Below the pieces are notes generated by a model. That model was not told the origin of the DNA and made no database searches. It saw nothing but the letters and a program-made list of their open reading frames with translations. 64,000 nt of DNA from an archaeon (GTDB taxonomy: Archaea; Nanobdellota; Nanobdellia; SCGC-AAA011-G17; GW2011-AR20), in assembly GCA_002688355.1 (NCBI GenBank), contig NZCT01000025.1:27175-91174 (forward strand), given 5' to 3'. The position numbers and the translations under genes were made by a program. Positions 2,565 to 63,379 of the stretch are shown one piece after another (position 1 is the stretch's first letter; each line of letters begins with the position of its first letter).

Positions 2565-2646
2565 TAGCTCTGCCAGGGGTCGAACCTGGGCCATAAGATT
2601 TCTCCTAAATCCAGAGTCTTATATCATTCCACTAGACTACAGAGCT
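2565..2646 (-). tRNA. tRNA, isotype undetermined; enlarged D-loop or small insertion; abuts tRNA-Glu with a 2-nt spacer
   Basis: Reverse complement has 7-bp acceptor AGCTCTG/CAGAGCT, D-stem GTCT/AGAC, and T-arm CCAGG-TTCGACC-CCTGG. The anticodon arm is ambiguous; GGATT/AATCT with loop TAGGAGA is one option. Confidence 0.45.
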
Positions 2647-18102: not shown

Positions 18103-19374
18103 ATGAAAAAAATAGGTGTTTACATAGGTTTACTAGTATTATTCTCAATATCAGTTCTAGCACAATCTAATTCTCCAGTAGCAATAGCAGGAGAAGATCT
18201 AACTACAACACCAGGGAGAATAATAATCTTAGATGCATCACAATCATATGACTTAGATAATGATATAACAGAAAGTTCATTTAAATGGTATGAAAATGAA
18301 CAACAAATAGGTCAAGGAAAAATATTAAGGTTAACATATTCTGAAACAGGAAGACACTTTATAACTTTAAGATTAACAGATTCAAAAGGATTATCTTCTG
18401 CTGATATAGTATCAATAAAACTAAAAGAGAAAGAGGTTTGCACAAAAACAAAAGCAGTGTACTTTCCTCAAGATACAATATGTAATAGTAAATGGCCTTC
18501 TCAAGATGGCGATAAAATGTTCATAAATAGTGAGGATTTCTCGTGCAATTTAATAGAAGTTTGTAGTGATGAACTAGATCCAATAGTGAAAGATTCAATC
18601 AAATGTTGTAGTTCTGCCATATTAGATAGTTCTTCTAAAGATTCTTCATGTAGCTTTGCACAAAGAAAATCAAATGGAAACTTCAAAAAATGTCAAGCTC
18701 TATATGTTACCAAAGGTCTTGGTACTGACCAAACATATATGGAAGGTTATTTTGAAGCAGAAATGTGTTGCTCGGCCATAGAAGGTTTATGTTCTAATCA
18801 AAGAAATTTTTATTCTCTTAAACCAATTCCCAGAACAAATACAAACACAGATTTTAGAAGATTTAATTGTGGGTCCACTCCAGAATACAACCCTCCTGGA
18901 GAATGGGTATCAAATTTAGATTTAAGTAAAAACAATTTAGCACTATCGGATTTACCCCCAAGTGTAACTATAAATACAATAGGAACAGGAACTTGTGTTG
19001 ATTTTAGTCTATCAATAACAACATTACTGAGAAAAATTGGCTACAAAAGTGATGAAATTTATTCAGTCTCAACAGAAAATCATGCATTTAACTTAGTTAA
19101 ATTTCCCTTAGATAGAAAATTCACAATCATTGACACAACAGGAACATCCCAAGATATTAGATTAGGTAAAAAGCCCTCTAGTTATGAATATTGTGAAGAA
19201 TTAGATAAATGTTGGAATGACTTAGGTCAAGTAGCATGTCCAGCTCTTTCCAATATAGTTGGTTGTGAAGGAGTTCCAGAAGATTTTTTCAGAAAAACAG
19301 AGAGAACTAAATTCAAAATTACAGATACGTCAAAGAAAATAATACGTGCAATAGCAAAGGAGGCATCATTTTAA
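18103..19374 (+). CDS. Secreted protein with N-terminal PKD-like domain and C-terminal transglutaminase-like cysteine protease core
   Basis: Signal peptide; PKD-like PVAIAGEDL...ILDASQSYDLDNDI...FKW...; Cys/His/Asp triad context GTCVDFS, ENHAFNLV, IIDTTG. Confidence 0.55.
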   Translation: MKKIGVYIGLLVLFSISVLAQSNSPVAIAGEDLTTTPGRIIILDASQSYDLDNDITESSFKWYENEQQIGQGKILRLTYSETGRHFITLRLTDSKGLSSADIVSIKLKEKEVCTKTKAVYFPQDTICNSKWPSQDGDKMFINSEDFSCNLIEVCSDELDPIVKDSIKCCSSAILDSSSKDSSCSFAQRKSNGNFKKCQALYVTKGLGTDQTYMEGYFEAEMCCSAIEGLCSNQRNFYSLKPIPRTNTNTDFRRFNCGSTPEYNPPGEWVSNLDLSKNNLALSDLPPSVTINTIGTGTCVDFSLSITTLLRKIGYKSDEIYSVSTENHAFNLVKFPLDRKFTIIDTTGTSQDIRLGKKPSSYEYCEELDKCWNDLGQVACPALSNIVGCEGVPEDFFRKTERTKFKITDTSKKIIRAIAKEASF

Positions 19375-19400
19375 AAACTTAAAATGTATATTAATAAAAA

Positions 19401-20153
19401 ATGAGGTACAAACCAATATTACTTTTAGCATTTATATTTTTACTTCAACTTTCTATAGTAAATGCTCAAGAGGTAACTGTAGACAGAGTATTACTAAACG
19501 AAGTAAGATATAATGAAGATTTAAGAATATCATTATCATTAACAAATAATCTAGCAGTAAAGAAAACATTTGAACTAAATGAAAGACTTCCTGTAAATGT
19601 AGAACTAATACAACCAGCTCAACCAACAGAAGTAAAAAATTTTAATGCTGTTGAAGTAATGTTCCTAAAATGGGATGTTGAATTAAACCCTTCTGAAAGT
19701 AAAGTAGTTTCATATACAATTAGACCTCAAAGAGTTGGGGAATTCACAATAGTCGGAGCTGAAGTTCTTGATCTTACTTCAGCCAGTACATATTCAGGCA
19801 TACAATCTCCTTTTGATGTTTCTTGTATATTAGATAATATTTGTAATTTAGATATAGGTGAGAATTATCAAACATGTGTTGCTGATTGTGACACAGGACT
19901 TGGGGATGGAATTTGTAATGCAATTCCTGATAATCAATGTGATCCTGATTGTACAAGTGATCCAGACTGTACTGGATCTGGGTTTAATATCTGGTATGTT
20001 ATCATTCCAGTTATTCTTGTCATAATAGGTTTCTTAATATATTTCTTCAAAAAACCAAATCAAGGTATTCCTGATGCAGAGCAACCTCGCCAAAATAATC
20101 AACCACAGAATCCTAAACAACCTCAAAAACCGAATGATATAATGTATAGCTAG
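19401..20153 (+). CDS. Surface protein: signal peptide, Cys-rich module, C-terminal TM anchor and Pro/Gln-rich tail
   Basis: N-terminal signal MRYKPILLLAFIFLLQLSIVNA; CxxxC-rich DCDTGLGDGICN...CDPDCTSDPDC; TM VIIPVILVIIGFLIYFF. Confidence 0.5.
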   Translation: MRYKPILLLAFIFLLQLSIVNAQEVTVDRVLLNEVRYNEDLRISLSLTNNLAVKKTFELNERLPVNVELIQPAQPTEVKNFNAVEVMFLKWDVELNPSESKVVSYTIRPQRVGEFTIVGAEVLDLTSASTYSGIQSPFDVSCILDNICNLDIGENYQTCVADCDTGLGDGICNAIPDNQCDPDCTSDPDCTGSGFNIWYVIIPVILVIIGFLIYFFKKPNQGIPDAEQPRQNNQPQNPKQPQKPNDIMYS

Positions 20154-20198
20154 TTTCTATATAAATTTATATAAAGAATAGAGGTTTTATATTAGAAA

Positions 20199-21659
20199 AT
20201 GAACATCCCTTTATTATTGAATTACTATTCTAGAAAAGATGTGCAAGAAGAACTCTTAAATTTTTCTAAGAATAAAGAATTCGTACCTAAATTTAAAGAT
20301 AGCTTTGGTAAAAGACCAGATATGGTGCAATATCCTAGAGATATTCTAGAACATGTCAAAAAAGGTGCAACTTCTTTTCACGTATCTGAAGAGAGATGGA
20401 AAGACCCTTTATCTCTAAAAACAGGTTTAACAAAAAAAGATCTAGATAAATTAAGAATTTCATGGGATTTCGTAATTGATGTAGATTTTGAAGTTTTTGA
20501 ATGCTCCAAGATAATAGCAAACAATATAGTAAAAGCTTTAGAAGAACATAAAATAAAAAATATCTTTGTAAAATTTTCAGGTAACAAAGGATTCCATATT
20601 TTAATCCCTTTTGAATCTTTTCCAGAATCAATTAAAAAACATAACGTTAAAGATTTATTTCCTGAAGCTCCCAAAGATTTACTTTTTTACATAAACAATT
20701 ACATAGATAATGAAAAAAATAACTTTAAGTTAACAAAAGAAATTGTTTCTAATAATTATTTTCAAGAATATCTAAAAACTAAAAAGAAAAAAGAAAGCGA
20801 TTTCATTCAAAATTTGTGTTCTAAATGTAACAAACCTAAAGTAAGTGGGGAAAAAATAGAATTTGTTTGTCCTTATTGTAATGAAACCTATTTTGAAGAT
20901 CCAAAAACTAAATTCAAAAAATGCAAAATGTGTAAAAAATTCACACAGAGAATGACGGATTTAAAATCAAAATGCTCTTGTGGAAATAGAAAATTCATTA
21001 AAAGAATAAATCTAGCTTTAGATACTATACTAATTTCAAGTAGACACTTATATAGAGCACCATATTCAATACATGAAAAATCAGATTTAGTTTCCCTACC
21101 TATAGATAAAAATAAAATTTTAGATTTTAATAAAGACGATGCAAAACCAGAAAACATTAAAGAAATAAAACCTTTTGTAGATGAATCTATAATCATTAAA
21201 GAAGAAGCTAGAACGTTAATGAATAGGGCTTTCAGTATTCAAAAAATTGAACAAAAAAAAGAAATAAAAGAATTTGATATACCTAAATCTCCTATAAAAA
21301 TCCAAAATTTTCCACCTTGCATTCTTTTAGGGTTAAAAGGTCTAGAAGATGGAAAAAAGCGTTTCTTATTCATATTGTTAAATTTCCTAAAATCTTCAGG
21401 TTATAATCACTCTCAGATAAAAGATATAATTTACGATTGGAATAAAAGAAATAAAGAACAATTAAATGAAGGATATGTATTATCTCAGTTAAGTTGGCAT
21501 CAAAGACAAAAACAAGTCCCTCCTCCAAATTGTCCTTCTAATTCAAATCTAGGGTATTACACTGATTTAAACATTTGTAAACCAGATAATCTATGTAAAA
21601 CAATCAAAAACCCTGCACAGTATACATTAAAGAAAAGTAAAACAAAACAAAAGAAATAA
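20199..21659 (+). CDS. priS: DNA primase, fused PriS catalytic domain plus PriL-CTD-like Fe-S domain
   Basis: PriS motifs DFVIDVD and FSGNKGFHILIP, R..PYSIHEKS; two CxxC zinc knuckles; C-terminal FPPC motif plus three further Cys. Confidence 0.75.
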   Translation: MNIPLLLNYYSRKDVQEELLNFSKNKEFVPKFKDSFGKRPDMVQYPRDILEHVKKGATSFHVSEERWKDPLSLKTGLTKKDLDKLRISWDFVIDVDFEVFECSKIIANNIVKALEEHKIKNIFVKFSGNKGFHILIPFESFPESIKKHNVKDLFPEAPKDLLFYINNYIDNEKNNFKLTKEIVSNNYFQEYLKTKKKKESDFIQNLCSKCNKPKVSGEKIEFVCPYCNETYFEDPKTKFKKCKMCKKFTQRMTDLKSKCSCGNRKFIKRINLALDTILISSRHLYRAPYSIHEKSDLVSLPIDKNKILDFNKDDAKPENIKEIKPFVDESIIIKEEARTLMNRAFSIQKIEQKKEIKEFDIPKSPIKIQNFPPCILLGLKGLEDGKKRFLFILLNFLKSSGYNHSQIKDIIYDWNKRNKEQLNEGYVLSQLSWHQRQKQVPPPNCPSNSNLGYYTDLNICKPDNLCKTIKNPAQYTLKKSKTKQKK

Positions 21660-21717
21660 CATATAGTTAAGTTTAAATAATAAAATTGTCTTTATCTTCT
21701 ATATTAAAAAGAGGAAA

Positions 21718-23319
21718 ATGAAATTTAAGAATTATATAATCTTATTGGCCTTACTTATAATAATACCAATAGTTTCCTCTCAATCTAATCAGGATTCACT
21801 TAATTGGATACAAACAAACATAAATTGGCAAGACGATAGTATCCATGATACAGTATTTTCTATATCGTCTTTAAATTTAAACAGCATAGAAACAAATACA
21901 CCTTCAAATATTTTATTACAAAGACAAGATTCTCAAAGCACTGAAGAATGTTATCCAAAAGGAAATTGTAATGTTAAAGATACAGCACTTTCACTTTTAT
22001 TTCTTAATCAAATATGGAAAGACAATAATAAAACATTAACTTGGCTAGCATCTGCTCAAACAAAAGCTCCAGTTTCTGGTAGCTGGCTAATACAGATAGT
22101 TTCTAGTAAAAATGGAACTTGCGTAATTGAACATAAAGGAAAGAATATAAATCATACAATATCTATTGACGAAAATAACAAAATCCAGCCATTTAACGTA
22201 GATTGGTTAGATATTGAGAGAGATTTACAAACAAGTTTGACTAATCCTGTAGAATTTTTATCTGTAGATTGTAGTAATCTTAAAAGTTCAAATGTTTTGA
22301 TTTCTTTATTAAGAAGATCTGGAAGTGAAATACACATTGTTCAACAAGAAAACAGAGATAAAGCAATATTGGAGGTTAATAATGCATGTTATCCTTTTTC
22401 AAAAGGAGGTCAGTGTGATTTAGATTCAACTTTCTTAGCATCTTGGGCCCTACATAAAACATCTGCAAAATTAGTGACAGTTCCTTATCTAGAAGATAAT
22501 GCTCAAACTAATTTACATAATGCTATTTTATACCAAATAACAGCAAATCCTAGATACGAAACAAAACTATCTGATAATGTAAACACAGATGGTTTCTGGG
22601 ATGATGTGTATACAACTTCATTTGTTATTAATTCCTTACAATCAAGAGCTCCAAATACTCAATTACTTAGTAATGCAAAATCTTGGCTAGACACTCAAAA
22701 GGATAATTCAACAAATAGGGGTTCTTTTAATGCAAATTTAAGAGATACTTCAGCAGCAACATATTTGGTTCTAAGTGGAGGTGGAAGTTTCACTCCGCCA
22801 TTAGACAGATCTACAAGAGAAGTACTAGAAACTTGTGGAGATGGCACAGTACAAACTTTTAATGATCAAGGTATATCTGAACAATGTGAAGCTGATAATG
22901 ATTCTTTATGTCCAGGACTATGTAATGTTAATACCTGTCAATGCATAACTTCTCAAACAACTACTACATCTTCTTCTACCTCTTCAACTTCTATTAGAGA
23001 TAATGATGGTTCTGGTGGAGGAGAAGATAATGGAGATCCTGACGATGAGGGTGGTTCAATATTCTTCAAAGTAATATTACCTATTCTTATTATTCTGATT
23101 ATTGGTGCAGGAGTATTCTTATATCTGAGATATGCGAAAAAGCCAAAACACAAAGATGAAGATCTTTTTGGAAATTACAGTCCTCCAAAAGAAGAAAAAT
23201 CAAGAGAACAACCAAGAAGAGAACCAAGAAAATACCAACCAAGTCCACGAGAAAATGCTATAGAAAGAGAATTAGATAAATCATTAGATGAAGCCAAAGA
23301 ATTATTTAAAAAGAAATAA
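21718..23319 (+). CDS. Cell-surface protein with prenyltransferase-like alpha/alpha-toroid repeats, Cys-rich domain, Ser/Thr linker, C-terminal TM anchor and basic tail
   Basis: Signal peptide; repeat CYPKGNCNVKDTALSLLFL; TM ILPILIILIIGAGVFLYL; paralogue of 60747-62879. Confidence 0.6.
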   Translation: MKFKNYIILLALLIIIPIVSSQSNQDSLNWIQTNINWQDDSIHDTVFSISSLNLNSIETNTPSNILLQRQDSQSTEECYPKGNCNVKDTALSLLFLNQIWKDNNKTLTWLASAQTKAPVSGSWLIQIVSSKNGTCVIEHKGKNINHTISIDENNKIQPFNVDWLDIERDLQTSLTNPVEFLSVDCSNLKSSNVLISLLRRSGSEIHIVQQENRDKAILEVNNACYPFSKGGQCDLDSTFLASWALHKTSAKLVTVPYLEDNAQTNLHNAILYQITANPRYETKLSDNVNTDGFWDDVYTTSFVINSLQSRAPNTQLLSNAKSWLDTQKDNSTNRGSFNANLRDTSAATYLVLSGGGSFTPPLDRSTREVLETCGDGTVQTFNDQGISEQCEADNDSLCPGLCNVNTCQCITSQTTTTSSSTSSTSIRDNDGSGGGEDNGDPDDEGGSIFFKVILPILIILIIGAGVFLYLRYAKKPKHKDEDLFGNYSPPKEEKSREQPRREPRKYQPSPRENAIERELDKSLDEAKELFKKK

Positions 23320-25385: not shown

Positions 25386-26132
25386 CTATCTCATAAACTT
25401 CCATTCATCTTTCTTAAATTTATTTTCAATCAAATTTTCAGCTCTTTTTAATTCATCCTCAGACCAAGTATCAAAAGTAAACTCTTTATCTTTTGTAAAA
25501 CCTTTAATTAAAGAATTAATTACTTCATCTTTAGTTAAATTATTATGATCTAAAACACAAGTAACTCTTTCCTTAACATTACTAATCATTTTATCAGAGA
25601 TCTTCTCTTTTCCAACATTCAAATATGAAAACATTTTATTTACATCCAAACTATAAATTAAAGTTCCATGTATTAAAACACAATTATTCCTTATTGTTAA
25701 GGCATTACCAGAAATTTTCTTATTATCAACAATAATATCATTTATTGGTTTAAACTCCCCTTTTAATCCTATTAATCCTAAACTGTCAATAATCCAATCT
25801 CCAACTATTTTATAGCATTTAGTTATATCATTAGTAAAGTACTTTGTTGGGACTGCAACACTAAAAGTTAATCCACCATCATTATCTTGGTAAACAGCTC
25901 CACCACCAGAAATTCTCCTAACAAAATCCACATTATCTTCTTTACATTTTTCTATATTAACTTCATCTTTAATTTTCTGAAAATAACCAATAATTACAGA
26001 ACTATTCTTCCAGCCATAAAATCTTATAGTGGGTTTAACTAATTCTTTTCCAACATATTCTGTTAGCACCTCATCTAAAGCTAAATTCATATTTGGTTCA
26101 TTTAACTCTAAATTAATTACTCGCCATTTCAT
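25386..26132 (-). CDS. lplA: Lipoate-protein ligase A, catalytic N-terminal domain (LplA)
   Basis: BPL/LPL catalytic domain RRISGGGAVYQDNDGGLTFSV; K...isGnA motif KKISGNAL. Confidence 0.75.
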   Translation of the reverse strand: MKWRVINLELNEPNMNLALDEVLTEYVGKELVKPTIRFYGWKNSSVIIGYFQKIKDEVNIEKCKEDNVDFVRRISGGGAVYQDNDGGLTFSVAVPTKYFTNDITKCYKIVGDWIIDSLGLIGLKGEFKPINDIIVDNKKISGNALTIRNNCVLIHGTLIYSLDVNKMFSYLNVGKEKISDKMISNVKERVTCVLDHNNLTKDEVINSLIKGFTKDKEFTFDTWSEDELKRAENLIENKFKKDEWKFMR

Positions 26133-26750: not shown

Positions 26751-27607
26751 TTTATTTCTATTCTTTGAATTTCATTCTTACATCTTCTTGAGCAACAGTT
26801 ATCAAATTTAGCATAACATTTTTCACAAACAACAAAGAACTTATCACACTCAACTTTAGCACAATTCTCTTGATTATCTGAAGGGATATGACAAATTGCA
26901 CATTGTGAAATTAATTTTGGTTCTTCTTCATTAATGCTAACAGCCCCTCTATGATCAAATACAAAACATTTCCCTTCCCAATGATCTACACCAACAGTTT
27001 TACCATATCTTATGATTCCACCATGTAGCTGTTTTACATTAGTAAATCCTTGTTCCACCATATAAGCAGATGCTTTCTCACATCTTACTCCTCCAGTACA
27101 GTAAGTCACAATTAATTTCTCTTTATTTTTTCCTAGTTTAGAAACTGCTTTTGGCCATTCAGAAAACACATCTATCTTCGGCGTAATAGCATTCTCAAAT
27201 CTTCCAATTTCAGATTCATAAGCATTTCTAGCATCCACCATTATTACTTCATCTTTAGAGTCTAACAGTTTCTTCAATTCTTTTGGTTCAATATATTCGG
27301 CTTTATTTTCCAAATTGCTTTTGTAATGTGTTGAAATAATTTCATCTCGTATTCTAACAAACATTTTTTTAAATGTGTGTTTCAAAACTTTACTTTCCTT
27401 AAATTCAACTTTTCCAAATTTCAAAGTAATATAATCTTTAATTTTTTTTATATCCTCATCTTTTCCAGAAACACAACCATTAACACCTTCTTTAGCAATT
27501 AGAATCTTTCCCAATAAACCAAGGGATTTACTTTTAGATAACAATTCTTCCTGTAATTTCTTTAGTCTATTTACATTAGTATACTTATAAAATAAAATAT
27601 TTTTCAT
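26747..27607 (-). CDS. trhO: Rhodanese-domain protein of the TrhO/YceA (tRNA U34 hydroxylase) family with C-terminal Cys-rich extension
   Basis: IVTYCTGGVRCEKASAYM (cf. CTGGIRCEKAS), upstream VDARNAYE. Confidence 0.7.
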   Translation of the reverse strand: MKNILFYKYTNVNRLKKLQEELLSKSKSLGLLGKILIAKEGVNGCVSGKDEDIKKIKDYITLKFGKVEFKESKVLKHTFKKMFVRIRDEIISTHYKSNLENKAEYIEPKELKKLLDSKDEVIMVDARNAYESEIGRFENAITPKIDVFSEWPKAVSKLGKNKEKLIVTYCTGGVRCEKASAYMVEQGFTNVKQLHGGIIRYGKTVGVDHWEGKCFVFDHRGAVSINEEEPKLISQCAICHIPSDNQENCAKVECDKFFVVCEKCYAKFDNCCSRRCKNEIQRIEIK

Positions 27608-36672: not shown

Positions 36673-38637
36673 ATGAAATACACTAAAATTTTATTCGCAA
36701 TAATATTTATATTAGCTTTATTTACAGGCTTAGATCAAGTTAGTGCATTAACAATTACAAATCCAAGTAATGTAAATGCTGATCCAAGCACTACAGCAAG
36801 TTTAACTTTTAACATAGATAATAGCGCAGTAACTGATATAGAAAAAACATTGTCATTTACAAGTTCAGTATTAAAACTTACAAGCGATAATACAAAAACA
36901 ATAACAGGTCCAACTATAGCAACCCAAACGTTTGCTATAAATACTGTGAGAGACGTGTCTTTTACAGTAGTAATACCTTCAACACCAGCTGGAACATATT
37001 CTGGAACTATAACTCCAAATGATGGTGCAGCAGATCTTGAAGATTTAACATATTCTGTTATTGTTAATTCTAAAGAAGATTTTTCTTTAGATAAAACAAA
37101 TTTACTAATAGGTGTACAAACAGATGGTGAAAATACAGGAGTCTTTACAGTAACAAACAAAGGTAGTGTAGATTTAACAGCAGATGTAGCAATTATTGGT
37201 ACTTTTAAAGATTCAAGTGAAAATGAACTTAAATTTGATCCAATAACTCAATTTACATTAGCAATAGGGGCTACAAAAGATATAACAATAAGAGTAACTG
37301 AAGAAGACGATATTGATTTAGGAACTTATACAGGATTAATAAGAGTAACTTCAACACAAAGCTTAGTAAAAGAAATATCAACATTTAGTGTTTTAGTTGA
37401 TCCAGAAATTTGTTCTGAAGGAAGAACAAAAAACAACATAAGAGTACCTTCATCTTCAGACCCTATTTTAAAAATCGATATTAAAGAACCAGGTTCTGGT
37501 GACGATCTTTACCCTGGTGACGAAATCGAAATCGAAGTTGATGTAGATAACCAAGGCCCAGATGATCTAGACGTTACAGTTGAAGCTATTCTTTTAAACT
37601 TAGATGACAACGATGAAGTTGAATCTGTTGAAGTAACTGAAGGAGTAAACGAAGATAAAGAAGAATCTTTCAAATTACTATTAACAGTTCCAGTTGATGA
37701 AGATATGACTGATAAAGATGATTATTCAATCTACATAAAAGCATATGATGATGATGACGAAGATTCAGATTGTAACTATGACAACGTTGATGTTGATTTC
37801 AAAAGAAGATCAAATGATGTTTTAATAAACAACTTCAATATTGAACCAACAATAGTATCTTGTAACTCTAATATTAGATTTACTGTTGATGTTGAAAATG
37901 TAGGTAAGAAAGAAGATAGCAATGTACAACTTAAAATATTAAATTCAGAATTAGGAATAAATCTAATTTCAGATGTATTCTTCTTGGATGAATTTGATAG
38001 ATCTGACAACATAGCTAAGAAATCATTTTCTCACTTCCTACCAGCGTCAGTAAAACAAGGAATCTATTCAATGGAAGCAATTGTCTTCTATAACAAAGGT
38101 TCAAAAAGTAGAAGTGAATTCACAGATCTAGAAGTAACTTGTGGTGACTCAGGTACAGGAACTGGAACAACAGGATCTGTAAACTTACTACAAAGTACAT
38201 TTTCAGCTACAGAAGGACAACAATTATCTGTTCCTGTTAAAATTATGAACCCAACAAGTTCAGCAGTAACATATACTGTAGAATTAATTCCAACAGGGAA
38301 TTGGGCAGATGTAGTGTCTCAACAAGAATCTGTACAAGCTGGTCAAGAGTCAACAGTATTTGTCTATCCTTTAATTAAACAAGGAACACAATCAGGCACA
38401 TACACAGGTGCAATAAACTTAAAGGAAGGAAGCAATATTCTATCTACTTCAAGTATTAGTGTTAACATACCACAAACAGGTACAGAATCTAATGCGGGAA
38501 CAGGTGGAGCAGTATTCCAACCAACAGGTTCATTTGTTCAAGACTGGATTGAAAACGGAAGAATATTCTGGATACTAGGAATAGTAGTACTAGCATTACT
38601 AGTAGTATTATTTGTTAGAATTATATTCAGAAAATAA
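36673..38637 (+). CDS. Large surface (S-layer-like) protein: signal peptide, Thr-rich Ig/CARDB-like domains, acidic D/E stretch, C-terminal TM anchor
   Basis: Signal MKYTKILFAIIFILALFTG; CARDB-like NNFNIEPTIVSCNSNIRFTVDVENVGKKEDSNV; TM IFWILGIVVLALLVVLFV + RIIFRK. Confidence 0.6.
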   Translation: MKYTKILFAIIFILALFTGLDQVSALTITNPSNVNADPSTTASLTFNIDNSAVTDIEKTLSFTSSVLKLTSDNTKTITGPTIATQTFAINTVRDVSFTVVIPSTPAGTYSGTITPNDGAADLEDLTYSVIVNSKEDFSLDKTNLLIGVQTDGENTGVFTVTNKGSVDLTADVAIIGTFKDSSENELKFDPITQFTLAIGATKDITIRVTEEDDIDLGTYTGLIRVTSTQSLVKEISTFSVLVDPEICSEGRTKNNIRVPSSSDPILKIDIKEPGSGDDLYPGDEIEIEVDVDNQGPDDLDVTVEAILLNLDDNDEVESVEVTEGVNEDKEESFKLLLTVPVDEDMTDKDDYSIYIKAYDDDDEDSDCNYDNVDVDFKRRSNDVLINNFNIEPTIVSCNSNIRFTVDVENVGKKEDSNVQLKILNSELGINLISDVFFLDEFDRSDNIAKKSFSHFLPASVKQGIYSMEAIVFYNKGSKSRSEFTDLEVTCGDSGTGTGTTGSVNLLQSTFSATEGQQLSVPVKIMNPTSSAVTYTVELIPTGNWADVVSQQESVQAGQESTVFVYPLIKQGTQSGTYTGAINLKEGSNILSTSSISVNIPQTGTESNAGTGGAVFQPTGSFVQDWIENGRIFWILGIVVLALLVVLFVRIIFRK

Positions 38638-38652
38638 TTCTATTTTCTTTTT

Positions 38653-39405
38653 TTATTTCTTTATATTTTTTATTATAAACTCAGAAATTAGTTTAATCAT
38701 TTTATTAAAATCCTTTTCTTCAGAAAATCTATGATTAGCACCTTCTATAATTTCTAATTTACAGTCTTTTATTATCTTAGAAACCTTCTTACTTTGTTCT
38801 ACTGGAACGGCTTCATCCTTATCACCATGAACTATTAAAGTAGGAATATTAATACTCTCAGCAGCCTTATAACCGTCTATATTAACAGAATCTTCATAGA
38901 ATGAATAGTTTAATCTAAGATTTTTTTGATATTCTAAAAAGCCTTTTTCCTTCCACTTTTCAGGGCTTATTCTATAACCTTTAGTTATTAATTCTTCCAT
39001 ATGATTAGATACAGGACACTTTAAAACTAATAGATAAATCCCATTACCTAATTTAGAAGCAGCTAAAATACTAACAATACCACCAAAACTTCCTCCAACA
39101 AGACCTAATTTCTTGTATCCTTTTTCTTTCAAAAATTTAACACAATTTAGAACTTCATCAACACCTTCAGATATTGTAATATTTTCAAACTTACCTTCAC
39201 TTTCTCCATGTCCATAAAAGTCAAACCTAAATGTAGAAATATTATTTTCATTTAGAACTTTTTCTAGTTCAATATTTGTGCTACTTTCTTTACTTGAAGC
39301 AAAACCATGAGATAATATAATTAAAGGATTCTCTTTATTAGAGCTTGACAAAATCCCACAGAGTTTATCCCCTTTACTATTTTCAAAATATATTTTTTCT
39401 TGCAT
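38653..39405 (-). CDS. Alpha/beta hydrolase (dienelactone hydrolase / S9-like)
   Basis: GxSxG nucleophile elbow LVGGSFGG; VHGDKDEAVP; terminal His region. Confidence 0.7.
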   Translation of the reverse strand: MQEKIYFENSKGDKLCGILSSSNKENPLIILSHGFASSKESSTNIELEKVLNENNISTFRFDFYGHGESEGKFENITISEGVDEVLNCVKFLKEKGYKKLGLVGGSFGGIVSILAASKLGNGIYLLVLKCPVSNHMEELITKGYRISPEKWKEKGFLEYQKNLRLNYSFYEDSVNIDGYKAAESINIPTLIVHGDKDEAVPVEQSKKVSKIIKDCKLEIIEGANHRFSEEKDFNKMIKLISEFIIKNIKK

Positions 39406-39414
39406 TTTAATAAA

Positions 39415-39519
39415 AGGATCCAGCCGGATTTGAACCGGCGATGACCGCTATCTCCCAATGGACTGCAGGTTGAACTAACAAATTGTTATCGGTTCCCTTG
39501 ACCACTTGGGCATGGATCC
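39415..39519 (-). tRNA. tRNA gene with a ~30-40-nt insertion (probable intron) in the anticodon region; isotype undetermined
   Basis: Reverse complement has acceptor GGATCCA/TGGATCC, D-arm CCCA-AGTGGTCA-(A)GGG, T-arm GCCGG-TTCAAAT-CCGGC; 105 nt total. Confidence 0.55.
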
Positions 39520-39568
39520 ATTAAGATATCCACATAGTAGAACTTTATAACCTTTTTTATAATTTAAG

Positions 39569-39676
39569 CGGGCCTGACGAGATTTGAACTCGCGACCCCT
39601 TGCTAACTTCAAAAGTTAGAAGGCAATCAAGCCAGTTTTTAAGCTGTGTGCTCTATCCAAGCTGAGCTACAGGCCC
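39569..39676 (-). tRNA. tRNA gene with a long insertion (probable intron); anticodon-like loop CTTAAAA (UAA, Leu?) present but stem unclear
   Basis: Reverse complement has acceptor GGGCCTG/CAGGCCC, D-arm GCTC-AGCTTGGATA-GAGC, T-arm GCGAG-TTCAAAT-CTCGT; 108 nt; internal hairpin CTAACTT-TTG-AAGTTAG. Confidence 0.55.
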
Positions 39677-39734
39677 ATGTTATGTTAAAAGTAAAGAATA
39701 TATTTGTTTAAAAGCTTTTTTACAACAAAGAAAT

Positions 39735-40427
39735 TTAAAAATTTATACCTGCTCCAACACGTCCTGAGACACGTCTTATGATTTTATTTTTTTCAATGTT
39801 ATCATCAAAACCATTAGTATAATCTCCAGAAACAACTATGTAAAATTTACTGCCTTTTTTTTCTTTATTTACTAAGTAAAACCTAATTCCACCACCAACA
39901 TGATAACTTGTTATAGTCATTCCATCGCTATCTATAGATTCACTAGATTCTCCAACTCCAAATCCTAAATTTGCAAAAATATTTTCGTAAGAAGAAGTTA
40001 ATCTGTTACTTTCAACTCCACCAGATATAAATGGAATAACTTTTCCCTCTTGTGCAAAATTAAGCCATGCTTCGAATCCAATACTCAAGTTTTCTAAAGT
40101 TTCTTTTTGCGAACTTAAACTTCCACCGAAAAATCTATTACTGGAAGCACGAAAAATATCTCCATGTTTAACGAATTTATCAAAAACTCCTCCAAATCCA
40201 ATATAATTATTCTCAGCGCCTATTAAAACTCTAGTTGAAATGTCATCTGGTTGATTATTAAAATCTTTAAATTCTTCACTTAATAGATTTGTAACTCCTG
40301 CACTACCTTGCATAATTAATCGAAATTTATTTTCTTGAGCTTCAACATTATTTATAGGATATAATAAATTAGATAATGCAATACTTCCATAAACAATACC
40401 TTTCTTTATAGTATTTGTTAAACTCAT
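39735..40427 (-). CDS. Bacterial-type outer-membrane beta-barrel-like protein (OmpA/OmpW/PF13505-like)
   Basis: Signal peptide with AQ cleavage context; repeated amphipathic beta-strand dyads (IGFGGVF, FGGSLSS, ISGGVES, LGFGVGES, YHVGGGIRFYL, VSGRVGAGINF); C-terminal aromatic Phe. Confidence 0.5.
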   Translation of the reverse strand: MSLTNTIKKGIVYGSIALSNLLYPINNVEAQENKFRLIMQGSAGVTNLLSEEFKDFNNQPDDISTRVLIGAENNYIGFGGVFDKFVKHGDIFRASSNRFFGGSLSSQKETLENLSIGFEAWLNFAQEGKVIPFISGGVESNRLTSSYENIFANLGFGVGESSESIDSDGMTITSYHVGGGIRFYLVNKEKKGSKFYIVVSGDYTNGFDDNIEKNKIIRRVSGRVGAGINF

Positions 40428-40476: not shown

Positions 40477-42921
40477 ATGACAACATTAAAAAACTATTTC
40501 TCTTTACTAATTAAAACAAAAATGGATTTTAAGAAAATAGAACAAAAATGGCAAGAAAAATGGGAACAGGACAAAGTTTTCAAGTCCATAGAAGATAAGA
40601 AAAAGAAATTCTATTGCCTAGAAATGTATCCCTACCCAAGTTCGGCTGGGCTGCATATGGGTCATGCATTGAATTATGGCATAGGAGACATATATGCTAG
40701 ATTTAAACGAATGAACAATTTTAACGTTTTATACCCGATGGGCTTTGACTCATTTGGTTTACCTGCAGAAAATGCAGCTATTAAAAATAATTCTCATCCA
40801 AAATTATTCACAGAATCAGCTATCAAAAATTATATTAAGCAAATGAAAGCTCTTGGTTTAAGTTATGATTGGGACAGAACCTTAATGAGCCACGATCCTA
40901 ATTACTACAAATGGAATCAGTATTTCTTTATTAAATTCTTGGAAAATGGATTAGCATCCAAAAAAAAATCAAGTGTAAATTGGTGTCCAGATTGTAATAC
41001 TGTTTTAGCAAACGAACAAGTAAATGAAGGTAAATGTTGGAGACACAAAGAAACAGAAGTTCAAATAAAACAATTAGAACAATGGTTCTTGAACACAACA
41101 AAATATGCTGATGAACTCCTTAAAGATATTGAAAAGTTAAATTGGCCAGAACGTATTAAAATAATGCAGAAAAATTGGATTGGTAAAAGTCACGGTTCTG
41201 AAATAATATTCAAAATTGAAGATGAGGATTGGAAAATATTCACAACAAGACCAGATACATTATTTGGAGTTACGTTTATGGTTATCTCTGCTCAACATAC
41301 AAAATTAATGTTCTTAGTTACAGAAGATCAAAAAGCAGAAGTTGAAACTTTCTTAAAAAAATTAAATTCAACAAAGGATGAAGATATTGATCAATTAGAA
41401 AAAGAAGGGGTTTTTACAGGAACTTATGCACAACATCCATTAACTAACGAAAAGATTCCAATTTATGCAGGAAACTTTGTCTTAGCTGAATATGGTTCTG
41501 GGATGATCATGGCAGTTCCTGGACATGACAAAAGAGACTTAGAGTTTGCAAAAAAATATGACTTACCAATTAAAGAAGTAATAAATGATTCTAATATTTT
41601 AATTAATTCAAAAAAGTTCAATGGTTTAACAGCTGAAGAAGCCAAAGATAAGATTACAAAAGAATTACAAAATAAAAATCTAGGAAAAAAAACAATTCAA
41701 TTCAAGATTCGTGATTGGCTAGTCTCAAGACAAAGATACTGGGGAACTCCTATTCCAATTATTTATTGTGATTCTTGTAATATAGTTCCAGTTCCAGAAA
41801 AAGACCTACCGGTTATACTCCCTGAAGATGTTAAATTTGGGGAAGGAAATCCATTAGAAACAAATGATGAATTTTTAAACGTTACTTGTCCAAAATGTGG
41901 CAAAAACGCTAAAAGAGAAACAGATACAATGGATACTTTCTTTGATAGTAGTTGGTATTTCTTAAGATACACAGATAACAAAAATAACAAAAAACCTTTT
42001 GAGAAAAGTAAAGTTGATTATTGGTTACCTGTTGATCAATATATTGGAGGAGCAGAACACGCAGTAATGCATTTAATTTATGCAAGATTTTTTACAAAAG
42101 CTCTAAGAGATTTAAAATTCCTAAATATAGATGAACCTTTTCCTAAATTATTTAATCAAGGGATGTTACATTTAGATGGTTTTGTTATGAGTAAAAGTAG
42201 AGGTAATGTTATCCTACCAGAAACTGTTTCAGAAAAATATGGGATAGACACAGCCAGATTATTTTTAGTTTCAGTAGCCTCTCCAGATAAAGATACAGAA
42301 TGGAATGAAAAAGGCGTAGAAGGAAGTCTAAGATTCATTAATAAAATCTTCAATTATTTTGAAACTGTTAAATTTGGAAAATCAAGTAAATCTCTAGAAA
42401 GTAAATTGAATAAAACTATTATAGATATATATGAAGATATTGAAAACTTTAGATATAATTATGCTGTCATTAAAATTAGAGAATTATTCGATTCGTTTGA
42501 AGAAGAGATTAATAAAAAAGATTTAGAATCTTTCATTAAAATATTAAGCCCTTTCTGTCCACACATCTCAGAGGAATTATGGGAAAAATTAGGAAATAAA
42601 ACATTCATCTCAAAAGAATCTTGGCCTAAAGCAGATAAAACTAAAATTAATAAAAAATTCGAAGAACAAGAAAAAATCTCAAATAATTTAATTAATGATA
42701 TAATTCATGTTGTAAACATAATAAAATCCAAAGGAAAGCAACCTGGAAAAGTTTATGTTTACGTTATCCCAAAAGAATTAACTCTTTACAATAAAGAATA
42801 TCTTGAAAAGAAATTAAACATAACTTTAGAAATTTATTCAGTTGCAGATCCAAAAAAACATGATCCTGAAAACAAATCTAAAAAAGCTAAACCAGGAAAA
42901 CCAGCACTATATGTAGAGTAA
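40477..42921 (+). CDS. leuS: Leucyl-tRNA synthetase (archaeal type, compact)
   Basis: HMGHALNYGIGD (HIGH), VMSKSRGNV (KMSKS), CPxC zinc motifs. Confidence 0.9.
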   Translation: MTTLKNYFSLLIKTKMDFKKIEQKWQEKWEQDKVFKSIEDKKKKFYCLEMYPYPSSAGLHMGHALNYGIGDIYARFKRMNNFNVLYPMGFDSFGLPAENAAIKNNSHPKLFTESAIKNYIKQMKALGLSYDWDRTLMSHDPNYYKWNQYFFIKFLENGLASKKKSSVNWCPDCNTVLANEQVNEGKCWRHKETEVQIKQLEQWFLNTTKYADELLKDIEKLNWPERIKIMQKNWIGKSHGSEIIFKIEDEDWKIFTTRPDTLFGVTFMVISAQHTKLMFLVTEDQKAEVETFLKKLNSTKDEDIDQLEKEGVFTGTYAQHPLTNEKIPIYAGNFVLAEYGSGMIMAVPGHDKRDLEFAKKYDLPIKEVINDSNILINSKKFNGLTAEEAKDKITKELQNKNLGKKTIQFKIRDWLVSRQRYWGTPIPIIYCDSCNIVPVPEKDLPVILPEDVKFGEGNPLETNDEFLNVTCPKCGKNAKRETDTMDTFFDSSWYFLRYTDNKNNKKPFEKSKVDYWLPVDQYIGGAEHAVMHLIYARFFTKALRDLKFLNIDEPFPKLFNQGMLHLDGFVMSKSRGNVILPETVSEKYGIDTARLFLVSVASPDKDTEWNEKGVEGSLRFINKIFNYFETVKFGKSSKSLESKLNKTIIDIYEDIENFRYNYAVIKIRELFDSFEEEINKKDLESFIKILSPFCPHISEELWEKLGNKTFISKESWPKADKTKINKKFEEQEKISNNLINDIIHVVNIIKSKGKQPGKVYVYVIPKELTLYNKEYLEKKLNITLEIYSVADPKKHDPENKSKKAKPGKPALYVE

Positions 42922-43523: not shown

Positions 43524-44045
43524 ATGAAAAAAGTATTATTTTCAATATTAATCTTAACAAGTTTATTTATTTTAGGTTGCACGACTGAAACTACCACAAC
43601 CACATTACAAGAAACTACTACAACTACAGAAGAAACTACAACCACAATAGAACCAAAGATGAAGAATATTGATGTACTAACAAATAAGGAACTTTACTTT
43701 CGAGCAGATGACGTAGAAATAAGTGTAAGAAACAATGGCCAAGAAATAGTAACCTTAACAGCAAGTAATGGCTGTGAAGATTTTTTCAAAATAACAAATC
43801 AAGATACTGGTAAAACTGTTCTTTTATACGATCACGAAGCTTTCTGTACTCAAGCAATTAAAGAATTAACAATAGAACCTGGCAAAACTGAAGTAATAGG
43901 AAATTGGGATCAAATTGATTTTACATCTAAAACATGCACTTATGGGGAATGCGATCCAGGCAATGCTGCCTTAGGAACATATAAGATACAAGTAAATGGT
44001 GCATCAAAAATAATAACTCTTATGATTCAACAAACTAATCTATAG
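43524..44045 (+). CDS. Putative lipoprotein, Thr-rich linker
   Basis: Signal plus lipobox-like LFILGC; poly-Thr; small beta-rich domain with paired Cys. Confidence 0.45.
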   Translation: MKKVLFSILILTSLFILGCTTETTTTTLQETTTTTEETTTTIEPKMKNIDVLTNKELYFRADDVEISVRNNGQEIVTLTASNGCEDFFKITNQDTGKTVLLYDHEAFCTQAIKELTIEPGKTEVIGNWDQIDFTSKTCTYGECDPGNAALGTYKIQVNGASKIITLMIQQTNL

Positions 44046-53132: not shown

Positions 53133-53333
53133 ATGGAAGTTAAAGTAATTTTAGAAAAACAAAAAGAAGGCGGTTACACAGTTTACGCTCCTTCATTATC
53201 AGGTTGTATTTCTCAAGGTGAGACAAAAGAAGAATCTCTAAAGAATATAAAAGAAGCTATAGAGTTATACTTAGAAGTTGATGAAAATGAAATAATTGTA
53301 TATGAAGGGGAGATTGCTGAAATTATAGTATGA
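53133..53333 (+). CDS. hicB: HicB-family antitoxin
   Basis: KQKEGGYTVYAPSLSGCISQGETKEESLKNIKEAIELYLE. Confidence 0.75.
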   Translation: MEVKVILEKQKEGGYTVYAPSLSGCISQGETKEESLKNIKEAIELYLEVDENEIIVYEGEIAEIIV

Positions 53334-53545
53334 AGCTTCCACAAATTTCTGGAAAAGATTTGATTAAAATTCTACGTAGAAATGGTTTTGTTGTTGTAAG
53401 ACAGAAAGGATCACATATAAGATTAGAGAAAAATACTGAAAAAGAAACTATTAAGATTACAGTACCAAATCATAAAACTATAAAAAAAGGAACATTAAAT
53501 CAGATTATAAAAGTATCAGGGTTAAAAGAAGAAGATTTGATATAA
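53330..53545 (+). CDS. hicA: HicA-family toxin (mRNA interferase)
   Basis: LIKILRRNGFVVVRQKGSHIRLEK...ITVPNHKTIKKGTLNQIIK; 4-nt overlap with hicB. Confidence 0.75.
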   Translation: MKLPQISGKDLIKILRRNGFVVVRQKGSHIRLEKNTEKETIKITVPNHKTIKKGTLNQIIKVSGLKEEDLI

Positions 53546-60746: not shown

Positions 60747-62879
60747 ATGAAGAGAATCTTGTTTTTAACCCTAATTTTAGCTATTTTCTTAATTTCTAGT
60801 GTAAATGCTGCTAACATTGATATAATAACACCAAAAGACGATTATCTAGCAAAAGAGACATTTCAAGCAGAAATTATTCTAAATATAGATTCTTTAAGCA
60901 AGATTTCAACAAATAATTTAAAACTAATCAATGAAACTAATTCAATAATTCCAGTACAATACTTTTTAGAACAATTAACAAATAAACACTATTTTATCTA
61001 TTTTAACTTACCAAACATAGATCAAGGAATCTATAAATTTCAACTAGATAATATTCAATATAAGTTAGATAATTCCCTTAAAATAGAATCTCCATTTAAA
61101 GAATTTAACATAAAAAAACTAAATCCTGGATTTGACTATTTACTAGAAAATCAAAATTCTGATGGTTCTTTTAATTCAATTTCGGAAACAGCTTTAGCTT
61201 CCTTGGCGTTAAAAAATATTTATCCTTCTCAAGCTAAAAAATCATTAAATTACTTAGAAAATAATCAAGATCCTTTAGGTTGTTATCCAAAAGGAAATTG
61301 TAATATAAAAGACACTTCTTTTGCTCTACTTTCTTTACATAATTTTAACAAAGATACTACAAAAATAACAAATTGGTTATTAGGTGCACAAAATAATTTT
61401 GATATTGGTTCTTGGACCTTAACATTAAACTCTGGAAGTTCCTGTTTAGTAAATAATCAAAACTATCAAACTTCTCAATCAATAGATATAAATGTAAATA
61501 CTGAAAATTTAATAATATCTTGTGATGCAGAAACAGAAATAACATTAAAACATTCTTTCCTAGGAAACGTAAAAACAATTCAACAATTACAAGCTACTGA
61601 AGCAAATATAACAATTGACAATTCTCAATGCTTTGGAAAAAATTACAAATCTGAATGTGATTATGAATCTACTTCTTTAGCTCTTTATTCTTTAAAACAA
61701 ACTGGAAATACAATAACAACAAATTATCTCCAAGAAAATCCTTCAGATACAAAAACTCTAGATCAAGCTTTTTTAAATTTATTAAACAATAATCAATATT
61801 CAAAAGATTGGTTAGAAAATAATTTAATAACTAATCAAAACGCATGGTCCCTTTCCTCAGTTTCAATATCTCAAACCCCAGATGTTTACTCGACTATATT
61901 TGCAACACTTTCATTAAAAGATACAGAACAATATGAAAAATCTATAAAATACTTAGAAAAGCAAACAACGAATAATATTTTAAATTCTGCTTTAATTTTA
62001 CATCTTTTCTTAGCTGATCAACAAAAAGAACCAATAATTTCTATATTCCCTGCATTCATTAATAAAAAAGGATCATTTGATTTAATTATAAAAAACGAAA
62101 ATAATATTCCTACTTTAGTAAAAGTAAATTCTCCAAACTTTACAAACATTCCAGCTAGTTTCACATTAGAAAACACAAAAGTATTTTCAGTAAATGTTCC
62201 TAAAACCTCTAAAGATTTTAATATAGAAATAGATTATGGAAATAATTCTTACTCAATATCTGTAATAACTGGAAACTTAACTCAAGGCTCCAACGGAATA
62301 AAACCATTAATTCAACCACCAGAAAATTCAATCTTAATCTTAACAAAAGACCTTTCTGAAAAAACTTCATTAATTGCAACCTTACTCAAGGAAGATGAAA
62401 TAACTGATGATTTAAGAATAAAAAATAATTGGGACTTTATCTTAAATAACATAAAAATAGAATTAACAGGAAATTTAGCAGAAATAATAGAACTTGAAAA
62501 ATACAATTATAACACAATACAACCAAACGAGATATTAAAACAGAAAATAATTATTAATAAGAATAAAAATTCTCTAGGATTATTTGAAGGGGAATTAATT
62601 ATAACAACAGATGAACTAACTCTAACATCATTACCAATATCTTTAACATTTACAGAAGATGAATCTAAAGTTGATACTCTTGAAGATAATGATAAAGATG
62701 AAATTAACGAAACTGAAGAAGATAATGGACCTACAGAAGATGATGATAAAATTTCTCCATGGATATGGTTAATACCTTTCTTTATTTTAGTAACAATCGG
62801 TATAATAATTTTTATATATTCAAGAGGACCTAAAAATAATACATTTAATAAATATATAGAAGGTATAAAAAAGAAATGA
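60747..62879 (+). CDS. Cell-surface alpha/alpha-toroid-repeat protein, paralogue of 21718-23319, with C-terminal TM anchor
   Basis: Signal peptide; repeats LLENQNSDGSFNSISETALASLAL and CYPKGNCNIKDTSFALLSL; acidic linker; TM WIWLIPFFILVTIGIIIFIY. Confidence 0.6.
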   Translation: MKRILFLTLILAIFLISSVNAANIDIITPKDDYLAKETFQAEIILNIDSLSKISTNNLKLINETNSIIPVQYFLEQLTNKHYFIYFNLPNIDQGIYKFQLDNIQYKLDNSLKIESPFKEFNIKKLNPGFDYLLENQNSDGSFNSISETALASLALKNIYPSQAKKSLNYLENNQDPLGCYPKGNCNIKDTSFALLSLHNFNKDTTKITNWLLGAQNNFDIGSWTLTLNSGSSCLVNNQNYQTSQSIDINVNTENLIISCDAETEITLKHSFLGNVKTIQQLQATEANITIDNSQCFGKNYKSECDYESTSLALYSLKQTGNTITTNYLQENPSDTKTLDQAFLNLLNNNQYSKDWLENNLITNQNAWSLSSVSISQTPDVYSTIFATLSLKDTEQYEKSIKYLEKQTTNNILNSALILHLFLADQQKEPIISIFPAFINKKGSFDLIIKNENNIPTLVKVNSPNFTNIPASFTLENTKVFSVNVPKTSKDFNIEIDYGNNSYSISVITGNLTQGSNGIKPLIQPPENSILILTKDLSEKTSLIATLLKEDEITDDLRIKNNWDFILNNIKIELTGNLAEIIELEKYNYNTIQPNEILKQKIIINKNKNSLGLFEGELIITTDELTLTSLPISLTFTEDESKVDTLEDNDKDEINETEEDNGPTEDDDKISPWIWLIPFFILVTIGIIIFIYSRGPKNNTFNKYIEGIKKK

Positions 62880-63379
62880 TAAAAATGACTTTAAGGATAA
62901 TTTTTGTACTTGCGTTTATTATGTTCATAACAGCTCTAATTATAGATACAACAAATAATAGAACTCTAGAAAAACCATTTAACGATTTAGTTGATAAAGT
63001 AGTTTACAATGCTCAACCTTATCCCAAAGATAGAGTAAAAGAAGAACAGATAAGAATTTACGAAGATAGAATTGTTATTAATGTTGCAGATGCTAAATAC
63101 GCGTCCTTTGCAGATACCCATTCCCAAGAACCATTTTTTGGAGAAGGTTCTAATGCAATTCAAATAGCTCCTGAATCTCCTCAAGATATTCAATTAGGAG
63201 ATGTTATAACCTATAGATCTACAGATTCTGGAAGTTTAATCATCCATAGAGTAATAAGTATTAAAAATGATGAGAATGGTTTATATTACACATTAAAAGG
63301 AGATAACAATAAAAAACCAGATCCTGAACGTGTGAGATTTAACCAAGTTAAAAGCGTTTTAATAGGAGTGATATACTAA
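62876..63379 (+). CDS. Type I signal peptidase (archaeal Sec11-like), divergent Ser box
   Basis: N-terminal TM; LGDVITY (box C), LIIHRVISI (His box), LKGDNNKKPDPE (box E GDNN..D). Confidence 0.5.
   Translation: MIKMTLRIIFVLAFIMFITALIIDTTNNRTLEKPFNDLVDKVVYNAQPYPKDRVKEEQIRIYEDRIVINVADAKYASFADTHSQEPFFGEGSNAIQIAPESPQDIQLGDVITYRSTDSGSLIIHRVISIKNDENGLYYTLKGDNNKKPDPERVRFNQVKSVLIGVIY

Follow-up and report, generated by a model that had tools for sequence, protein, structure and literature searches.

The stretch of DNA analysed here, referred to as the window, comprises 64,000 nucleotides (positions 27,175 to 91,174) of the archaeal contig NZCT01000025.1 from assembly GCA_002688355.1. Its minus strand carries an open reading frame (ORF) of 230 codons that is flanked on one side by two intron-containing tRNA genes (39415-39676), with an alpha/beta hydrolase gene beyond them, and on the other by a divergently oriented gene for a bacterial-type leucyl-tRNA synthetase (LeuRS), as listed in Table 1. 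The ORF product is predicted to be an exported eight-stranded beta-barrel protein of the class found in bacterial outer membranes, and the founding member of a small family. An initial annotation, made from the sequence alone, had described the ORF with its terminal Phe after ...RVGAGIN and its tRNA and hydrolase neighbours, and all of these were recovered. The product is composed of 12% G, 10% S, 9% N, 9% I and 8% F and has no Cys. No competing ORF of at least 50 amino acids (aa) was found over this interval on either strand, and the existence of homologues argues against a chance ORF. The same protein sequence is already deposited as 'hypothetical protein CL617_04495 [archaeon]' and derives from a Tara Oceans run.

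The ORF is confirmed as a gene native to a Woesearchaeota-like (DPANN) archaeal genome. Its GC content is 0.291 and its GC content at third codon positions (GC3) is 0.113, with neighbouring genes ranging from 0.11 to 0.20 in GC3, and no compositional break was detected around it. Archaeal genes flank the ORF on either side along 111 kb. The markers on the contig include a ribosomal-protein cluster (S4e, L32e, L15e, RNase P p29 and SUI1), eIF-1A and eIF-2 beta for translation, and Topo VI A/B, TFIIE alpha, Hjc, Orc1/Cdc6, the primase small subunit and Nre for replication, transcription and DNA metabolism; the alanyl-tRNA synthetase is also of the archaeal type (TIGR03683). The LeuRS-ORF junction was found again on a separate Logan assembly (L002) from the same Tara run, and other portions of the contig recur in additional Tara assemblies. 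The normal composition and the second assembly of the junction contradict the chimeric assembly that the initial annotation had named as a caveat.

A full HMMER pass over 1.84e9 cluster representatives retrieved only five relatives of the window protein (P0002 to P0006; E 1e-37 to 1e-5, 28-44% identity) and no bacterial sequence with an E-value of 1e-3 or lower. Word-indexed searches of 5.8 billion proteins, run with the protein and with the family profile even at E 10, returned three family members and nothing new; no relatives were detected in viral contigs, and the family-profile hidden Markov model (HMM) identified no paralogue within the window. The six members are 227-246 aa long and share the N-terminus M-x-L-E-N-I-x-R-K-G-L-P-Y.... 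Their mature parts lack Cys in all six cases, and every member has a C-terminal aromatic residue (F in five, and W followed by a final L in one). P0002 is encoded in Candidatus Woesearchaeota archaeon RIFCSPHIGHO2_02_FULL_32_10 (L005), from groundwater, and L006 is the same scaffold in a metagenome. The family of six representatives is apparently restricted to Woesearchaeota.

Comparison of the loci indicates that the divergent pairing of LeuRS and barrel genes is kept in the window, in L005/L006 and in L004, where the N-terminus of LeuRS accompanies P0006, the most distant member. In the long syntenic block common to the window and L006 (OTCase, L15e, DHH, PAP2, S-layer protein ... barrel, LeuRS ... 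Nre), the housekeeping proteins are 56-79% identical, while the barrel (45%) and the S-layer protein (49%) are less conserved, the pattern expected of exposed surface proteins. Downstream of the barrel gene, L003, L004 and L005/L006 carry a convergent gene for a thiamine pyrophosphate (TPP)-dependent enzyme (acetolactate synthase in L005), in the place where the window has the tRNA genes and the hydrolase. The tRNA genes had been proposed to mark an integration site. The groundwater ortholog, however, occupies the same LeuRS-adjacent position in the syntenic block with no tRNA genes beside it, so that the adjacency is peculiar to this genome and offers no evidence of an integration event, and any bacterial origin would have to be old. 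The barrel gene is therefore old, vertically inherited and fast-evolving in a narrow Woesearchaeota-like lineage.

The protein is apparently exported. Its N-terminus, MSLTNTIKKG-IVYGSIALSNLLYPI-NNVEA/QEN (the slash marks the putative cleavage site), has on inspection and in the family alignment the n/h/c layout of Sec signal peptides, and both this architecture and the A-x-A-like site (VEA/Q) are kept across the family, with a weak h-region. The V-x-A/Q site resembles those of other secreted proteins of the window (VLA/Q, VNA/Q), and cleavage would occur after A30. The AlphaFold2 (AF2) model described below places a helix at residues 3-22, with low confidence and detached from the barrel. Archaeal type IV pilin-like proteins carry a [KR]-[GA] cleavage motif and, directly after it, ~20 strongly hydrophobic residues that the mature protein keeps. 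Such a class III (pilin-type) signal was considered and rejected on inspection: a conserved R/K-K-G/A/S motif does precede the hydrophobic stretch, but the stretch has only ~15 residues with a weak Kyte-Doolittle (KD) hydropathy of 1.5-2.3, includes Pro, Ser and Asn, and leads into the A-x-A-like site.

To predict the fold, the alignment of the six sequences was used as input for AF2 and strands were assigned with DSSP. The best model reached a predicted local distance difference test score (pLDDT) of 77.6 and a predicted template modelling score of 0.68, with 85 residues at or above a pLDDT of 90, and all five models fell between 70 and 78. The predicted structure is a closed antiparallel eight-stranded barrel with both termini on the same side. 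The model has eight long strands instead of the 8-10 short ones of the initial annotation. The highest structural-match scores were obtained for outer-membrane barrels: a Legionella OMP_b-brl protein (9nh2_A; 17.2, 170 residues aligned), NspA (17.0; 151/155 residues, 2.6 Å), the OprF N-domain (15.4), OmpA (15.0), OmpW (14.5), Thermus TtoA (13.9) and PagL (13.0). Soluble barrels (DUF1842, avidins, YceI, Cap15, PsbO) scored at most 9.6, DUF1842 being the best of them, and thus neither they nor lipocalin-like proteins are the closest structural neighbours. Foldseek pointed to the same class as this second comparison method, with OmpA, Ail, NspA and OprF at E ~1e-6 and TM-scores, normalised to target length, of 0.6-0.7. 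With outer-membrane barrels at the top of the matches, the soluble beta-sandwich that the initial annotation had considered as an alternative outcome finds no support. We regard the barrel fold as highly probable, based on these models.

Table 1. Position of the barrel gene, its predicted elements and the neighbouring genes. Positions are those of the window; residue numbers refer to the 230-aa product.
Feature	Position	Strand	Basis or remark
Barrel gene ORF	39735..40427	-	ATG start, 230 aa + stop, ends ...SGRVGAGINF
Putative Sec signal peptide, residues 1-30	40338..40427	-	n-region KK, weak h-region GIVYGSIALSNLLYPI, c-region NNVEA then Q
Predicted mature barrel, residues 31-230	39738..40337	-	AF2 + DSSP
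Predicted strand b1	residues 36-48		AF2/DSSP
Predicted strand b2	residues 63-72		AF2/DSSP
Predicted strand b3	residues 76-98		AF2/DSSP
Predicted strand b4	residues 101-123		AF2/DSSP
Predicted strand b5	residues 130-155		AF2/DSSP
Predicted strand b6	residues 160-184		AF2/DSSP
Predicted strand b7	residues 194-207		AF2/DSSP
Predicted strand b8	residues 218-229/230		AF2/DSSP
C-terminal strand RRVSGRVGAGINF, residues 218-230	39738..39776	-	Read from sequence
BRE/TATA-like element AAAGCTTTATAA	40457..40468	-	TTTATAAA core ends 28 nt upstream of barrel ATG
Bacterial-type LeuRS, divergent neighbour	40477..42921	+	TIGR00396 leuS_bact 917 bits vs 254 bits for archaeal model
tRNA gene, intron-containing	39568-39676	-	Rfam RF00005
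tRNA gene, intron-containing	39415-39519	-	Rfam RF00005
Alpha/beta hydrolase	38653-39405	-	Beyond the two tRNA genes
Putative S-layer protein, 654 aa, secreted, C-terminal transmembrane anchor	36673-38637	+	NF033506 'PACE-CTERM-PROT', E 2e-63

The sequences of two relatives show weak similarity to the same class. When the members were scanned one by one, P0005 matched PF13505 OMP_b-brl at E 3e-4 (21.4 bits, profile positions 16-155 of 175) and P0006 matched it at E 2.6e-3 (18.4 bits, positions 13-175 of 175). PF13505 was the sole Pfam family matched, and four of the six members, including the window protein, gave no match; the models for OmpA, OmpW, Ail/Lom and all other Pfam families returned nothing even at E 10. 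The HMM search suggested in the initial annotation therefore yielded the OMP_b-brl family in part, through these two relatives, and neither OmpA nor OmpW. Pfam and NCBIfam miss this family. The weak similarity suggests that the protein may be distantly related to the bacterial OMP_b-brl superfamily and, together with the structure prediction, it upholds the original view that this archaeal genome encodes an outer-membrane-like barrel of bacterial type.

We also analysed the alternation of hydrophobic residues in the predicted strands, using for each strand a hydrophobic-plus-aromatic scale and 5000 shuffles, with half-strand boundaries that were set after viewing the model. Over all strand residues, z was 4.8 for the family and 3.5 for the window protein. 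The signal rose to 6.4 and 5.0, respectively, in the halves close to the termini, and the distal halves of b3-b6 showed none (-1.4 in both cases). By column, strict alternation is confined to residues 36-46, 63-72, 76-86, 113-123, 130-140, 174-184, 194-204 and 220-230, all of them next to the termini or the short turns. One strand face consists of L, I, V, F, Y and A, with ~5 large residues per strand, and the opposite face has few charges and bears the invariant residues G44, T46, G70, G117, G137 and G180 as well as R36, R66, E72, E119, H176 and R223. Because ~5 bulky residues per strand exceed what the lumen of an eight-stranded barrel can hold, the hydrophobic face is taken, on geometric grounds, to point outward. 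Strands b3-b6 overshoot this belt by ~12-15 residues. A belt ~10-11 residues tall with a protruding polar four-stranded sheet would correspond to the design of OmpX, Ail and NspA.

The C-terminal strand shares features with bacterial outer-membrane proteins. The pattern of a bacterial beta-signal is polar-x-G-x-x-hydrophobic-x-hydrophobic, and the last eight residues, R-V-G-A-G-I-N-F, fit it. In the family, a G-rich alternating strand usually precedes the terminal aromatic, a GG/G motif is present in most members, and the terminal aromatic, which in the window protein is the Phe described in the initial annotation, is kept in all six. The beta-signal concept is described in PMC7383365. This C-terminus had been called a hallmark of recognition by the beta-barrel assembly machinery (BAM); the motif resembles a beta-signal, but no BAM component was seen in the ~85 kb of contig covered by precomputed Pfam calls, so that recognition by BAM is not implied by it.

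Taken together, the best explanation of these data is, by our estimate, slightly on the probable side: an exported barrel of the outer-membrane protein (OMP) class that is embedded in an outer lipid layer, where it would serve as an adhesin or anchor. The Sec signal peptide of ~30 residues would be removed and the protein exported, and the mature part would fold into a closed eight-stranded antiparallel barrel of the bacterial OmpX/Ail/NspA/OmpA-N class, with a polar interior rich in Gly, Ser and Thr and a hydrophobic belt adjoining the termini and short turns. The belt would sit in a lipid layer outside the cytoplasmic membrane, which may be the archaeon's own outer membrane or one located where it touches a partner cell. 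Insertion would proceed spontaneously or with the help of some further factor, rather than through BAM, and the protruding b3-b6 sheet may act as an adhesin or anchor, as in OmpX, Ail and NspA. For the parts of this proposal, embedding in a membrane has somewhat better than an even chance, and the adhesin or anchor role, drawn by analogy, is doubtful. The statement that Archaea lack outer membranes, on which the initial annotation relied, is too absolute. Double membranes have been reported for Ignicoccus, ARMAN, Altiarchaeum and Methanomassiliicoccus (PMC4243693); ARMAN and Altiarchaeum are affiliated with DPANN, and double-membraned archaea are described as interacting closely with other cells (PMC4243693, PMC8871954). 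Small OMPs fold into bilayers without BAM in vitro (PMC7383365).

Several observations weigh against a membrane-embedded barrel. The model rests on six sequences only, and AF2 run on the single sequence is unusable (pLDDT 34.5); closure of the barrel and the outward orientation of its hydrophobic face come from structural matches and geometry. For the window protein, the period-2 moment calculated globally with the KD scale does not exceed that of shuffled sequences (z 0.28), so that the amphipathic strands described in the initial annotation are seen per strand and near the termini, and neither globally nor in the distal halves. Searches of Pfam, NCBIfam and PDB sequences with the window protein gave no match even at E 10. 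Both PF13505 scores are under the gathering threshold of 28.7 bits, and membership at the sequence level is therefore not established. Searching PDB sequences with the family profile found no OMP and one chance match only, and P0005 and P0006 gave FapC low-complexity noise or nothing. The core of the signal peptide is weak, its best 10-mer having a KD hydropathy of 1.5 versus ~3 in other secreted window proteins. Omp85/BamA, POTRA, Skp, SurA and Lol are all absent from the Pfam calls in the same ~85 kb. Additionally, the gene for the membrane-anchored putative S-layer protein (NF033506) lies two genes from the barrel gene, which suggests the usual single-membrane archaeal envelope, with no obvious home membrane for the barrel.

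These points bear on the alternatives to different degrees. The missing assembly components and the nearby S-layer gene would suit a soluble exported barrel with a hydrophobic interior, located under the S-layer or in the medium and binding a lipid or another hydrophobic ligand, for example in the scavenging of host lipids by a DPANN symbiont, as do YceI, lipocalin, avidin-type or PopA lipid-trapping barrels. Barrels that trap lipids have been described, and Altiarchaeales may contain a distant relative (PMC12228718); the outward direction of the hydrophobic face, moreover, comes from structural matches and geometry. Nevertheless, the invariant Gly residues and few charges on the non-hydrophobic face, the number of large residues that a lumen would have to accommodate, and the restriction of the alternation to a belt of membrane-like height, instead of the entire barrel, argue against this explanation, as do the OMP traits (terminal aromatic, no Cys, weak PF13505 similarity), and we consider it unlikely. 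The shallow alignment raises instead the question of whether the barrel was over-read and the product is an exported beta-rich protein of a different fold, which would agree with the unusable single-sequence model, the lack of an above-threshold family match and the null result for global amphipathicity. This is very unlikely given the consistent pLDDT of the five models with their 85 residues of at least 90, the agreement of two independent structure-comparison methods, and the coincidence of two near-full-length PF13505 matches, a terminal aromatic and an alternation restricted to the belt.

The barrel could also be released as an effector that inserts into the membrane of a partner or host, as a small pore, a lateral conduit of the OmpW/AlkL type or an anchor point. 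The spontaneous entry of small OMPs into bilayers in vitro (PMC7383365), the typically episymbiotic life of DPANN archaea, the close interactions noted for double-membraned archaea and the fast evolution of the barrel sequence relative to its neighbours are in line with this possibility. Against it, no extra domain ties the barrel to the producing cell, the neighbouring genes are housekeeping ones with no adjacent secretion or delivery genes, and known pore-forming toxins are oligomeric, not monomeric eight-stranded barrels, which makes an effector decidedly unlikely. Bacterial contamination, a chimera or a recent horizontal insertion at the tRNA genes would account for those genes, for the bacterial-type LeuRS next door and for a fold typical of bacteria. 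It is contradicted by GC and GC3 values that match the neighbours, by archaeal genes on both flanks over the 111 kb, by the junction in L002, and by synteny, with an ortholog at the same locus in the groundwater Woesearchaeote and on two more contigs, an acetolactate synthase gene taking the place of the tRNA genes after it; no bacterial homologue reached E <=1e-3 among the 1.84e9 representatives, and none was present in viral contigs. An origin of this kind, including a recent island at the tRNA site, is close to negligible.

Among known systems, NspA (PDB 1p4t) and the OmpX, Ail and Opa adhesins resemble the window protein in their mature length of ~200 residues, in having short turns at the end where the termini lie and strands that overshoot the belt, and in their terminal Phe and lack of Cys. 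They differ from it in sequence (9-18% identity, no sequence-level match) and in the host, which for the window protein is an archaeon in which neither BAM nor a lipopolysaccharide pathway is seen, and its b3-b6 strands are unusually long (23-26 residues); their adhesin function applies to it by analogy only. PF13505 OMP_b-brl proteins, such as the Legionella Dot/Icm-associated 'porin III' (9nh2_A), are approached by the family with sub-threshold matches in two members and none in the other four. In the set formed by the OmpA and OprF N-domains, OmpW and Thermus TtoA, with structural matches of 13.9-15.4, OmpA and OprF carry a C-terminal peptidoglycan-binding domain, which the window protein does not have. 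The pore complex of Ignicoccus and the possible PopA-like protein of Altiarchaeales would likewise be archaeal proteins of an outer lipid layer, and no relationship between them and the window family was found. The dominant outer-membrane protein of Ignicoccus is not known to be an OmpA-type barrel.

Beta-barrels that span a membrane are generally regarded as characteristic of the outer membranes of bacteria and of organelles with a bacterial ancestry, which makes the find unexpected. No report of OMP-type barrels in Woesearchaeota was found in the literature, the nearest mention being the possible distant PopA relative in Altiarchaeales (PMC12228718). The model-based data point to a very divergent new family of the known eight-stranded outer-membrane-barrel kind, one that turns up in a domain of life where it was not expected, with the customary assembly context missing. 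Tentatively, and short of what we would call probable, it may be the first true transmembrane beta-barrel family native to Archaea, embedded without BAM in a second lipid layer, either the cell's own outer membrane or a host interface. If so, these DPANN archaea would be double-membraned or would use a bacterial-style barrel as a host-contact device, and the C-terminal 'beta-signal' would be conserved for barrel closure or for an archaeal insertase. A native, syntenic and conserved barrel raises the questions of whether uncultured Woesearchaeota have a second membrane, whether barrels assemble without BAM also in archaeal lipids, and whether the protein takes part in symbiont-host contact. As a small, readily expressed protein, it offers a test case for BAM-independent folding.

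Upstream of the barrel gene, the element AAAGCTTTATAA is consistent, as weak evidence, with an archaeal promoter made up of a transcription factor B recognition element (BRE) and a TATA box. The position of its core only 28 nt before the ATG would imply a leaderless mRNA or one with a very short leader. A near-identical copy precedes the adjacent tRNA gene (39707-39718), and TTTATAAA is found 25 nt upstream of the ATG of the ortholog in L005; in a genome of 28% GC this type of element is weak evidence, with 3 matches against 1 expected. Both tRNA genes scored above the Rfam RF00005 gathering threshold (43.3 and 40.4 bits); ARAGORN misses them by default and finds them in intron mode. A third intron-containing tRNA gene is located at 2565-2646(-). 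The anticodons given by the intron mode (aat, aaa and, for the third gene, 'Pyl' cta) are implausible and were not used. The LeuRS ortholog of the Rifle Woesearchaeote (L005 6894-9782, -) has 962 aa, with a NUDIX domain (PF00293, E 1e-11, residues 382-496) placed inside the editing domain or directly behind it, an unusual fusion of a synthetase with Nudix.

Other features of the contig were also recorded. The ORF at 43524-44045(+) encodes 173 aa whose N-terminus, MKKVLFSILILTSLFILGC, resembles a lipobox and precedes a linker rich in Thr and Glu; its match to the BsuPI proteinase inhibitor is borderline (22.6 vs 22.9 bits), and it may be an archaeal lipoprotein. At 18103-23319(+) and 60747-63379(+) there are clusters of secreted proteins, probably further surface proteins, whose signal peptides are strong and which could be assigned to few or no families; they include a 423-aa PKD-domain protein ending in ...KEASF as well as proteins of 250, 533, 710 and 167 aa. 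Genes for the E1 alpha, E1 beta and E2 subunits of a 2-oxoacid dehydrogenase (L007 19657-22133, ~9-12 kb past the 3' end of the window) and for a lipoate-protein ligase (window 25386-26132; L009 8851-9597) are notable for a small DPANN-like genome. Precomputed Pfam calls identified a HicB-like antitoxin/HicA toxin pair (PF15919, PF07927) beside Orc1/Cdc6, at ~53133-53545(+) (L007 2387-2799). Upstream of the window start (L008 12283-15438), methionyl-tRNA synthetase appears to be encoded in two parts, a catalytic protein of 486 aa and a tRNA_bind protein of 160 aa, and a free-standing LAGLIDADG_3 homing-endonuclease ORF lies near it.

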